DNA of 64,000 nucleotides, from the IMG/VR virus record IMGVR_UViG_3300017975_000002; one strand, written 5' to 3'. Each line of letters begins with the position of its first letter. Positions within the stretch are counted from its first letter, which is position 1. This DNA comes from a virus. Below are positions 24,919 through 27,144 of this stretch, one piece after another. A program made the position numbers and the translations under genes. A model generated the notes under the pieces. That model had not been told where the DNA came from. It ran no database searches and saw only the letters and a list, made by a program, of their open reading frames with translations.

Positions 24919-24948
24919 AGTTGATTGGATAAGCGAAGGAATGAAGTT

Positions 24949-27144
24949 ATGCCGATTGAAGTCATCAAAGGTAAGAACGTCCCGATTAACTTGTGGGCGC
25001 CTGTTCGAGAAGTCGAGAGCCAAGCGATCGATCAGCTCAAGCACATCGCTGCACTACCATGGATCGCGCATCTTGCCGTCATGCCAGATTGCCTAGACGA
25101 AGACACTGAGGTGCTTCAACCAGACGGCTGGCAGCACATTCGCGACCTTAAATTGGGTGAAGACATTGTTGGATTCGATCCCGAGACACGTCTTTGCAAA
25201 ATCGAACCGTGTACAGGCTTGATCGTACGCGAACTACGCGCGGACGAGCAGGTACTGGAGTTTACGTATCCATTCCACAACGTTTATACGCGATCAATTC
25301 GCGTCACTGACAGCCATCGCATGGCTCTCGCTGCACGCATGGGTATCGAGGCTAAAAACATTGCGAATACTGTCATCGGCGACTATGTGTGGCATGGCGA
25401 AGGCTTTCAGCGCCAAAAACCAAGTGCGTTCGATGACTATACGTTAGATGAGTTCAGGCTGTTCGCGTGGATTCTAGGTGACGGAAATATCAAGATCACG
25501 CACAACGCGCGCTCCGACAACCATCGAATTCGGTTCGGACTTATGAAGTCACGCAAAATCAACCGACTGACTACGTTGCTCGACAAGCTGGCGCTCACGT
25601 ATCACCAAAGCAAAGACGACCGCGATCAAACCGTGATCGTGGTGAATACACAATCTTCCGAGCGCTACCTAGAGGGGCTGCGGTACTCGAAAAAAGCTCC
25701 TTGGAACATGCTTGCGAGTGACCCGTTGAAGGTCCGTGCTTTTTTAGATGAAGCTGTACATATCGATGGTGATTACGAGAAGCATGCAACTAGCGGTACC
25801 TGGCGCTTCAACACTTCCGATCGCAATATCGCCGACTTTTTCGCTGCGCTGATCGTCACAACGCTCAGCGCCACTGCGGTCTACAGTCGCGAAGTAACCA
25901 CCACCTACGGTGATGCAGAGATGTTCATCGTATCCGCCGTGTCGGACCTCTCTAAGAACAATCCGTCCGGGCTCCCAAATCGCAAGGTTTCGATCAAACC
26001 TGTCGCGTACAACAAGCGTGTCGTGTGCTTAGCTTGTCCGTCGACATTCTTCGTCGCACGGCAAGGCAAGACCGTGTTCATCACAGGTAATTGCCATTTC
26101 GGGATCGGCGCTACAGTCGGCTCTGTTGTTGCTATGCGAGGCGCTGTAAGTCCCGCTGCAGTGGGAGTCGATATTGGGTGCGGCATGTCGGCTCTAAAAA
26201 CGAGCCTGATCGCGAAGAAGTTGCCAGATAGTCTAAAAGATCTCCGCAACGAGTTGGAAGTCGCGATTCCAGTTGGCCCTGGAGATCACGCAGCGCGTAC
26301 ATTTGACGTTCGTGATTCACTTCCCGATAGCACCAAACATGAAATCGCGCAGCTCATGGGGCGTTTTAAGGATCTCACCGGTAAAGTGCAGGACATCGAA
26401 ACGCGCGCTATCCGTCAAATAGGTACGCTCGGATCTGGCAACCACTTCATCGAGCTGTGCCTCGACGAGAATGACAGCGTCTGGCTCATGCTGCATTCAG
26501 GCAGTCGCAACATCGGCAAGACGCTTGCCGAACATCACATGGCTATCGCTAAGACACTCAAGCACAACGAAGCCCTCGAAGATCGTGAGTTGGCAGTGTT
26601 CTTAGCTGATACACCCGAGATGACGGCGTACCGACACGATCTCTATTGGGCGCAGGAGTACGCGCGCATCAATCGTATGGTGATGCTCGATCTCTACAAA
26701 GAAGTCCTGCGAGGCTTCTGGCCCAGCGTGACCTTCGAGGAAGGCATCTACTGTCATCACAACTATGTCGCTGAGGAGCAGCACTTCGGTGAGAATCTCT
26801 GCGTGACTCGCAAAGGCGCGATCCGTGCCGGTCGCGGCGACCTCGGGATCATTCCTGGCAGCATGGGCACCAAGAGTTTCATCGTACGTGGCAAGGGCAA
26901 CCCAGATGCACTTGAAAGTGCATCTCACGGTGCTGGTCGCAAGATGAGTCGCGCCAAGGCGAAGTCGAAGTTCACCGTCGACGATCTGATCGAAGCAACG
27001 AAAGGCGTGGAGTGCAGAAAGGACCACGGTGTGCTTGATGAGATTCCGATGGCGTACAAGCCCATTGATCACGTCATGCAGAATCAGCAAGACCTCGTCG
27101 AGATTGTCGCGACACTCAAGCAGGTGTTGTGTGTGAAGGGTTAG
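24949..27144 (+). CDS. rtcB: RNA-splicing ligase RtcB, intein-containing
   Basis: ATG with RBS gaagga (ORF 24925 uses an upstream TTG). The exteins 'HLAVMPD' | 'CHFGIGATVGSVVAMRGAVSPAAVGVDIGCGM...GNHFIEL...HNY...SHGAGR' match RtcB. Confidence 0.85.
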   Translation: MPIEVIKGKNVPINLWAPVREVESQAIDQLKHIAALPWIAHLAVMPDCLDEDTEVLQPDGWQHIRDLKLGEDIVGFDPETRLCKIEPCTGLIVRELRADEQVLEFTYPFHNVYTRSIRVTDSHRMALAARMGIEAKNIANTVIGDYVWHGEGFQRQKPSAFDDYTLDEFRLFAWILGDGNIKITHNARSDNHRIRFGLMKSRKINRLTTLLDKLALTYHQSKDDRDQTVIVVNTQSSERYLEGLRYSKKAPWNMLASDPLKVRAFLDEAVHIDGDYEKHATSGTWRFNTSDRNIADFFAALIVTTLSATAVYSREVTTTYGDAEMFIVSAVSDLSKNNPSGLPNRKVSIKPVAYNKRVVCLACPSTFFVARQGKTVFITGNCHFGIGATVGSVVAMRGAVSPAAVGVDIGCGMSALKTSLIAKKLPDSLKDLRNELEVAIPVGPGDHAARTFDVRDSLPDSTKHEIAQLMGRFKDLTGKVQDIETRAIRQIGTLGSGNHFIELCLDENDSVWLMLHSGSRNIGKTLAEHHMAIAKTLKHNEALEDRELAVFLADTPEMTAYRHDLYWAQEYARINRMVMLDLYKEVLRGFWPSVTFEEGIYCHHNYVAEEQHFGENLCVTRKGAIRAGRGDLGIIPGSMGTKSFIVRGKGNPDALESASHGAGRKMSRAKAKSKFTVDDLIEATKGVECRKDHGVLDEIPMAYKPIDHVMQNQQDLVEIVATLKQVLCVKG
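25090..26091 (+). mobile_element. intein with LAGLIDADG homing-endonuclease domain inside rtcB
   Basis: A 334-aa insertion beginning with Cys after AVMPD and ending ...ITGN before +1 Cys. It contains 'LFAWILGDGNIKI' (LAGLIDADG). The insertion point matches the archaeal RtcB intein site. Confidence 0.7.

Follow-up and report, generated by a model that had tools for sequence, protein, structure and literature searches.

We describe an RNA ligase gene, rtcB, and the intein that interrupts it in a 64,000-nucleotide stretch of viral DNA (IMG/VR virus record IMGVR_UViG_3300017975_000002), the whole of which is called the window here. The gene lies in a single open reading frame (ORF) of 739 codons that is intact throughout and that the ORF listing opens at a mechanical TTG (Table 1). 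The start is probably an in-frame ATG eight codons further in, because homologue N termini align at the same position and AAGGAA precedes the codon; translation from it would give a precursor of 731 amino acids (aa). In the translation, the motif AVMPD occupies ORF residues 51 to 55 and is followed directly by the insert, which begins with CLDEDTEVL, carries LFAWILGDGNIKI internally, and ends in FITGN before a Cys, at which the C-terminal extein (C-extein) opens with CHFGIGATVGS...AAVGVDIGCGM. A first-pass annotation, made by a model from the sequence alone, had reported this ORF, an insertion of 334 aa, and these flanking sequences, and all of them were present.

Ligase exteins and the insert

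With the insert removed, the protein matched the Pfam RtcB model (PF01139) over its entire length (model positions 1-426/426; E value, 1.5e-122; 410 bits) and phrog_1075 at an E value of 2e-130; in the unspliced precursor, the Pfam RtcB match began at model position 13 and was confined to the C-terminal part. The spliced sequence aligned without gaps across the junction with 23 RtcBs at 64 to 73% identity, 22 of them intein-less proteins of about 390 to 430 aa and the 23rd, P0069, itself intein-bearing at DIG|C (bars mark the junction between extein and intein). In mature-protein numbering, C85, H173, H190, H278, and H334 were found in all alignment rows and D82 in at least 90%; H334, in the conserved SHGAGR motif, we take to be the guanylylated (GMP-accepting) His of RtcB. 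Window residues D82, C85, H173, H190, and H278 correspond to Eco D75, C78, H168, H185, and H281, the metal ligands described for Pho and Eco RtcB (PMC8051266). The spliced sequence also aligned with solved RtcB structures (Thermus, human, Pyrococcus), in which the motif reads MPDIH or LPDVH. That the exteins reconstitute a complete RtcB, as first annotated, is borne out by the end-to-end Pfam match and by the retention of every catalytic residue, both the metal ligands and the SHGAGR His. The mature protein is predicted to be a GTP/Mn2+-dependent 3'-phosphate/5'-OH RNA ligase. At the junction, the fused extein DNA reads TGGATCGCGCATCTTGCCGTCATGCCAGAT|TGCCATTTCGGGATCGGCGCTACAGTCGGC and the predicted ligated peptide ...HLAVMPD-CHFGIGATVGSVVAMR.

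The two best intein-less homologues of the window RtcB, P0005 and P0006 (L088 10001-11284; 72 to 73% identity), carry after GNHFIELC a 28-residue Cys-rich insertion, C-x2-C...C-x2-C, which the window protein is without. P0006 is on a 288-kb contig of a metagenome-assembled genome (MAG).

The insert has the residues and the fold of a class 1 intein: Cys1, a TxxH motif, Asn334 followed by Cys+1, a HINT fold, and a host protein that becomes colinear with RtcB once the insert is removed. Cys stands at all three splicing-relevant positions (Cys1, Cys313, and Cys+1). In the model and the sequence, one LAGLIDADG helix (residues 119 to 130) leads into ILG-D131-G132 and the other (residues 212 to 225) into HI-D226-G227. 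Precursor residues 54 to 390, spanning the insert, matched phrog_32482 (E value, 5e-7), and a profile of five insert sequences matched the solved AceL NrdHF intein (PDB 6zgq; E value, 4e-5) over blocks A and B. NCBIfam intein_Nterm reached an E value of 0.037, below threshold, and a single-sequence PDB search with the insert found nothing. Residues 1 to 334 of the insert aligned end to end, at about 25% identity and an E value of about 1e-9, with insertions in phage genes for primase/helicase, DNA methylase, and ribonucleotide reductase; among these are mycobacteriophage genes of a type that Kelley et al. 2016 surveyed for inteins.

The intein was modelled with AlphaFold 2 from a 14-sequence alignment (pLDDT, 88.9; pTM, 0.87), in place of a single-sequence AlphaFold model of the whole precursor that was unusable (pLDDT, 32). 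The model has beta-rich N-terminal (residues 1 to 73) and C-terminal (residues 301 to 333) parts and a central alpha/beta domain. In a Foldseek search against the PDB, PI-PfuI (E value, 1.2e-11) and PI-SceI came out on top, with E values from 1e-11 to 1e-8, followed by I-DmoI, a free-standing enzyme with two LAGLIDADG motifs; this enzyme, I-SceI, and E-DreI were matched at 4e-6 to 3e-4 with a probability of 1.0, and the BIL/HINT domain 2lwy was matched as well. PI-PfuI and PI-SceI share the bipartite fold of a HINT domain and a double-LAGLIDADG endonuclease (TM score, about 0.5 to 0.6 normalised to the query), but they are only 10 to 12% identical to the window intein, are larger (about 420 to 454 aa versus 334 aa), and have a penultimate His where it has Gly. 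Blocks A, B, F, and G and the fold confirm that the insert is a full-length class 1-type intein with a LAGLIDADG homing endonuclease, its activities being predicted; the first-pass description of a bona fide LAGLIDADG intein with Cys first, Asn last, and Cys at +1 holds.

Table 1. Features of the rtcB gene, its intein, and neighbouring DNA in the window. Conservation counts refer to 234 full-length members of the broader intein family.
Feature	Coordinates	Strand	Remarks	Conservation
rtcB precursor ORF, including stop	24925..27144	+	TTG at 24925 mechanical; ATG at 24949 probable start	
N-extein	24949..25089	+	47 aa from ATG (MPIEV...HLAVMPD); ends in the conserved RtcB MPD motif	
Intein	25090..26091	+	334 aa (precursor aa 56-389); HINT domain split by double-LAGLIDADG endonuclease	
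Block A	25090..25128	+	CLDEDTEVLQPDG; Cys1 (A:1), N-terminal nucleophile	Cys 233/234
Block B	25297..25329	+	IRVTDSHRMAL; TxxH (T73-D-S-H76), Thr73 (B:7) and His76 (B:10)	B:7 Thr/Ser 233/234; B:10 His 234/234
First LAGLIDADG motif	25447..25494	+	DEFRLFAWILGDGNIK; Asp131 at helix end, putative catalytic acid	Asp/Glu 229/234
Second LAGLIDADG motif	25732..25779	+	VRAFLDEAVHIDGDYE; Asp226-Gly227 at helix end	Asp 221/234
Block F	26017..26064	+	RVVCLACPSTFFVARQ; Cys313 where Asp (F:4) is normal; conserved Arg324	F:4-aligned Cys 220/234; Arg324 206/234
Block G and Cys+1 codon	26071..26094	+	TVFITGN, Cys+1 codon 26092-26094; penultimate Gly333 (G:6), terminal Asn334 (G:7)	G:6 Gly 220/234; G:7 Asn (227) or Gln (6) 233/234; +1 Ser/Cys/Thr 234/234
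C-extein	26092..27141	+	350 aa (CHFGIG...CVKG); also holds the GNHF, LHSG, and CHHN histidines	
Metal ligand Asp	26170-26172	+	C-extein	
Bridging Cys	26179-26181	+	C-extein	
SHGAGR His	26926-26928	+	C-extein; presumed GMP-accepting His	
VWA-domain protein	3248-5113	+	621 aa; VWA domain C-terminal (residues 420-531)	
HNH endonuclease	10444-11025		Free-standing	
Major-vault-protein homologue	16535-19219	+	894 aa; Pfam MVP_shoulder (4.6e-24), Vault_3 (5.7e-10)	
ThiF/E1-like protein	23134-23706		1.8e-24	
Direct repeat, 40 nt	28854-28893, 29056-29095		95% identical, 202 bp apart	
tRNA-like array	29214-29659	+	2.1 kb downstream of rtcB	
YrlA match, non-significant	29214-29359		17 bits; overlaps tRNA-like element	
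Orphan T-arm	29242-29257			
Spacer repeat, 20 nt	29268-29287, 29445-29464		AAGAYCACTGAAGCGGTCAT; between tRNA-like elements	
tRNA	29303-29369		Rfam tRNA, 48 bits; anticodon loop CUUAUAA; uncalled by ARAGORN	
Long-variable-arm element	29480-29559		29.6 bits as tRNA-Sec, below threshold	
tRNA-Arg(UCG)	29588-29659			
OMP decarboxylase	29948-30688		1.8e-56	
ADP-ribosylglycohydrolase	30685-31617		1.2e-65	
Methyltransferase + dual-specificity-phosphatase fusion	54529-55632	-		

Insertion site and intein family

In mature-protein numbering, the intein separates Asp55 from residue 56, and the bridging Cys (residue 85) follows about 30 codons downstream. The nearest 79 metagenomic RtcBs with a readable site (49 to 68% identity) were all intein-less and had Val (75), Ala (3), or Ile (1) at +1 after MPD; Cys was found there only in intein-bearing alleles. 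Because the intein-less homologues have Val, Ala, or Ile at this position, the Cys+1 is a residue that comes with the intein allele, and it would persist in the mature enzyme as a Val-to-Cys scar beside the conserved His of MPD-x-H. The site had been annotated as a conserved MPD|C: the insertion point is right, but the +1 Cys is not conserved, the site being conserved as MPD|V-H (79 of 79 without Cys).

RtcB has long been known as an intein host. By a count made in 2015, its inteins numbered 27 in bacteria and 10 in archaea (PMC4760082), phage RtcB inteins have already been reported (bioRxiv 10.1101/2025.01.02.630785), and an Anaeramoeba RtcB has its intein at a third site, FGST|CHGE (PMC10710043). 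In Pyrococcus RtcB, Cys98 is the intein splice junction (PMC4150793). The first-pass annotation had asked whether archaeal RtcB inteins share the window's insertion point, and they do not: theirs is DIG|Cys98, again some 30 codons downstream, and a common site was rejected on the NCBIfam alignment, Pyrococcus Cys98, and the phage DIG|C examples given below. The inteins of PH1602 (Pyrococcus horikoshii RtcB), NF038162, and NF052663 resemble that of the window in host enzyme, terminal Asn, Cys+1, and location in an active-site motif, but their Cys+1 is the native catalytic residue, whereas in the window it replaces a conserved Val. The window extein scored 460 bits against NF052663 over the C-extein part, and both NCBIfam models aligned the C-extein from residue 85; the full precursor fell below the cut-off of both. 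These curated intein-RtcB models cover the catalytic-Cys site only.

The best 120 protein-database matches to the RtcB were 388 to 428 aa long, too short to hold an intein. RtcB occurs in 581 GenBank phage records, of which only four aligned with at least 80% of the precursor. These four represent two phages, Corynebacterium phage Lederberg (gp59) and the Pseudomonas jumbo phage vB_PaeM_PS119XW, each with a full-length LAGLIDADG intein at DIG|C of its RtcB that belongs broadly to the same family. Both inteins share with the window intein a C-x-D-x-x-T-E-x-L block A, a KERK motif, and an ITGN|C ending, but are only 22 to 24% identical to it over the full length (E values, 1e-17 and 3e-10), no closer than inteins of primase and methylase genes; a recent jump from DIG|C within rtcB was rejected for this reason.

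MPD|x-H constitutes a second, distinct RtcB homing site with its own intein clade in large phages, and its use forces the change from Val to Cys. The site was covered neither by curated models nor in the literature searched (InBase and the papers' supplementary tables lay outside the search), and we cannot claim it as undescribed. The intein is genuine but commonplace as a selfish element, set apart only by a site about 30 codons upstream of the classical one, and knowledge of how RtcB or inteins work is unchanged. For annotation, the gene should be recorded as an intein-containing RtcB with a mature ligase of 397 aa, not as a 739-aa fusion or hypothetical protein.

An exhaustive hidden Markov model search for the intein family found 22,280 cluster representatives at E values of ≤1e-3 and 3,366 at ≤1e-30. 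Ten residues were tabulated across full-length members (Table 1), and the window intein carries all ten. A word-indexed protein search returned four relatives only, all of them RtcBs interrupted at precisely the same junctions, MPD|C...TGN|CH. Profile searching added further RtcBs at MPD|C and three other hosts, namely peptidase M15, GTP cyclohydrolase I, and an unannotated protein whose C-flank, SSPLEH, resembles ThyX. The nearest full-length relatives (25 to 37% identity) were RtcB MPD|C inteins at ranks 1 to 12, 14 to 18, and 22, which makes 18 of the nearest 22. About 18 RtcB clusters had homologous inteins at this site, and the same intein allele, there written MED|C, was carried by 11 IMG/VR contigs of jumbo phages (148 to 401 kb). 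Such sharing of a host site among the nearest inteins follows the usual rule for intein alleles. The window copy adds a high-GC member to the clade, whose other members come from AT-rich jumbo phages.

Next after the RtcB clade came three inteins (P0184, P0215, and P0225; 27 to 32% identity) whose insertion point, H|CHAGAYRSP, is in the catalytic loop (HC-x5-R) of a Cys-based phosphatase. This junction resembles RtcB D|CH(A/Q/S)G, and the likeness hints that the intein may have switched exteins by microhomology.

Some rtcB genes have been invaded differently or more than once. P0069 (L086/L087 1-1696) has the C-extein most similar to that of the window (74% identity), and its intein, homologous to the window's, is inserted at DIG|C instead. 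That intein contains an in-frame stop inside the endonuclease domain, after which an ATG-initiated ORF follows, and the same sequence was found in four contigs; this is a pseudogene or else a split intein in the making. Two AT-rich phage contigs (L003 8001-11276 and L005 8001-10607) carry an MPD|C intein in an rtcB that is also broken exactly between its GGG and NHF codons, by 1.06 kb with a LAGLIDADG_3 ORF in L003 and by about 0.18 kb in L005, so that both genes are doubly invaded. Rfam group I intron models did not match either intervening sequence. The window gene and these relatives with both intein and intervening sequence support the view of phage RNA-repair genes as hot spots for selfish elements.

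Predicted splicing and homing, and rival explanations

We put at roughly 85% the probability that the window holds an intact rtcB split by a class 1 self-splicing, homing intein, with splicing and cleavage predicted from sequence and model. The gene would be translated as a precursor of 81.6 kDa (computed masses throughout) with the 37.9-kDa intein inside MPD-x-H. Splicing would begin with an N-S acyl shift at Cys1, helped by Thr73 and His76 of block B, and proceed by trans-thioesterification by Cys+1; Asn334 would then cyclise without a penultimate His (Gly is there, as in most family members), and an S-N shift would finish the peptide bond, yielding a 397-aa RtcB of 43.7 kDa with Cys for the usual Val after MPD. 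Once freed, the intein would act as a homing endonuclease of the monomeric, double-LAGLIDADG type. In a co-infection, it would cut an intein-less rtcB around ...GTCATGCCNGAY|GTNCAYTTCGG... (the empty site is taken from L088), and repair would copy the intein together with the Cys+1 codon.

In a large phage, the most plausible task of the mature RtcB would be to rejoin RNAs, tRNAs among them, that host ribotoxins have cleaved, and repair against host anticodon nucleases may reasonably be supposed. A function of RtcB in phages is attested by its distribution over the 581 GenBank records, and RtcB in phages has been discussed by Iyer et al. 2021 (PMC7824862).

Several points weigh against the self-splicing, homing intein. 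Both its splicing and its endonuclease activity are taken from conservation. Pfam intein and LAGLIDADG models gave no match to the insert even at E values of ≤10, and because Pfam is blind to it, recognition of the intein needed profiles, PHROGs, tblastn, and structure. The penultimate His (G:6) is absent, Gly333 being in its place, and no block F His was evident on reading the block F sequence. The lineage does decay: P0001 (L001 361-1164 and L002 179-982), the closest intein copy (78% identical over 216 residues), is a decayed remnant that consists of the N-extein and 216 intein residues, is cut off in the endonuclease domain, and continues into unrelated DNA of 72% GC; its sequence was identical in two independent sequencing runs. 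Between the window and P0001, pN/pS was 0.133/0.709 and dN/dS about 0.07 (0.07 for the splicing part and 0.06 for the endonuclease part), values that are only approximate with synonymous sites near saturation (pS, 0.71). Lastly, the virion structural protein family match in the window is weak (E value, 5e-6), and there is no clear capsid or terminase gene.

Rough as they are, the dN/dS values nevertheless indicate purifying selection on both parts of the intein. The penultimate His is poorly conserved in class 1 mycobacteriophage inteins (Kelley et al. 2016, PMC5050341). With Gly as its penultimate residue, the Bethlehem gp51 RDF intein was shown to splice completely and to be slowed by a G316H change, and endonuclease toxicity was demonstrated for inteins of this kind (PMC5050341). 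Like the window intein, it is phage-borne and has Cys1 and a penultimate Gly, in a different host protein; the full-length alignment of the window intein with mycobacteriophage inteins, at only about 25% identity, is to those of primase and methylase genes. By this analogy, Gly333 would be a known variation and not disqualifying for splicing, being typical of the family and compatible with it in a tested phage intein.

The most serious competitor, in our estimate unlikely, is an intein that splices but whose endonuclease is inactive or domesticated, making it an immobile fixed element or a conditional (e.g., redox-sensitive) RtcB switch. The GC content of the intein (51.8%) is close to that of the extein (54.5%), as is GC3, which suggests long residence, and no near-identical pair of intein-plus and intein-minus genomes was found among GenBank phages and JGI metagenomes, where megablast gave only a 59-bp match to GenBank phages and the JGI metagenome scan no relative of >68% identity. 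The three cysteines at Cys1, Cys313, and Cys+1 would also suit a switch; lying at a splice centre within the RtcB active-site motif, they could gate RNA repair by redox state during infection. However, each LAGLIDADG motif retains its acidic residue and the Gly next to it, and the low dN/dS extends to the endonuclease part. The inteins of the window and P0001 are 78% identical, versus about 46% for their N-exteins (46 to 47 residues, counted by hand), which faintly suggests horizontal movement between diverged rtcB genes, a weak signal because the N-extein sample is short; same-site copies in very different, AT-rich phage backgrounds likewise argue against an immobile element.

A quite improbable alternative is that the window is a piece of bacterial chromosome with a cellular, intein-bearing RtcB. 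Some of the best matches to the extein are proteins from MAGs assigned to Deltaproteobacteria, Polyangia, or Myxococcaceae, and the scarcity of virion genes noted above can also be cited. Most window ORFs, however, are without a Pfam match, and one protein matches phrog_2426 (E value, 5e-170), is conserved in phages of about 160 kb, and had tblastn matches in 487 phage records. Further PHROG matches are to phage dCTP deaminase, an RNase H-like protein (exonuclease), and HNH endonuclease; a tRNA array is present, and all same-site intein relatives with context are on phage-like or IMG/VR contigs. With these PHROG matches, the tRNA array, and many ORFans, a viral origin of the window, as part of a large phage, is likely rather than proven.

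A further alternative, which we consider marginally less credible again, concerns the route of splicing, which may use, or be able to use, block F Cys313 as in class 3 inteins and not Cys1 alone. A Cys aligned with F:4 is near invariant in the family, Thr or Ser stands at G:5 (Thr332 in the window), and the ribonucleotide reductase intein of Corynebacterium phage Darwin aligns Ala at position 1. Against this, Cys1 is conserved in all but one member, B:12 is Met, Leu, Ile, or Val, and the F:4 assignment is a by-eye sequence alignment with Mtu RecA block F. Class 3 inteins are defined by the absence of an N-terminal nucleophile (PMC7664689), and we also applied the WCT triplet (Trp B:12, Cys F:4, Thr G:5); with Cys1 present and Met at B:12, membership of class 3 was rejected. 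The family can be described as a very large phage-associated subfamily with Cys1, the F:4-aligned Cys, Thr or Ser at G:5, and a penultimate Gly, in which splicing with dual nucleophiles is a slim prospect that depends on Cys313 being competent. If true, these inteins would have two redundant entry routes to splicing and would be functional intermediates of the kind whose absence between class 1 and class 3 has been remarked on.

Least probable is a decayed, splicing-dead intein in an rtcB that is a pseudogene or encodes an inactive ligase, for which the missing penultimate and block F histidines, the truncation of the closest relative (L001/L002) after intein residue 216, and the in-frame stop in the intein of P0069/L086 can be cited, but which sits poorly with an ORF intact over 739 codons, the retention of all nucleophiles and block B residues and of all extein catalytic residues at 64 to 73% identity, a dN/dS of about 0.07, and a penultimate Gly that is the family norm and splices well in a tested phage intein.

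Genomic neighbourhood

The Rsr–Y RNA–RtcB theme into which the first-pass annotation had placed the gene is not supported, as no TROVE protein and no significant Y RNA were found in the window. Scans of 49 window ORFs with Pfam and/or PHROGs gave no TROVE/Ro60 match, and Rfam searching of the window gave no Y_RNA and a YrlA match of 17.2 bits against a gathering threshold of 69 bits (E value, about 1). The architecture of a VWA-domain protein encoded in the window would be compatible with a Ro60-like protein; it did not match TROVE even at E values of ≤10, nor did it match Ro60 in the PDB.

Downstream of rtcB is an array of tRNA-like elements, of which one matches the Rfam tRNA model and one is tRNA-Arg(UCG); a spacer repeat recurs between the elements, and a longer direct repeat lies just upstream of the array (Table 1). 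The window also encodes, in phage-like DNA, a homologue of the major vault protein (MVP). The contig of P0069 (JGI sample 3300050821) has an 872-aa MVP-like gene 1.5 kb from its rtcB, and the linkage of rtcB with an MVP-like gene is thus recurrent. Auxiliary genes in the window are those for a ThiF/E1-like protein, OMP decarboxylase, and ADP-ribosylglycohydrolase, together with a free-standing HNH endonuclease and, on the opposite strand, a protein in which a methyltransferase is fused to a dual-specificity phosphatase.

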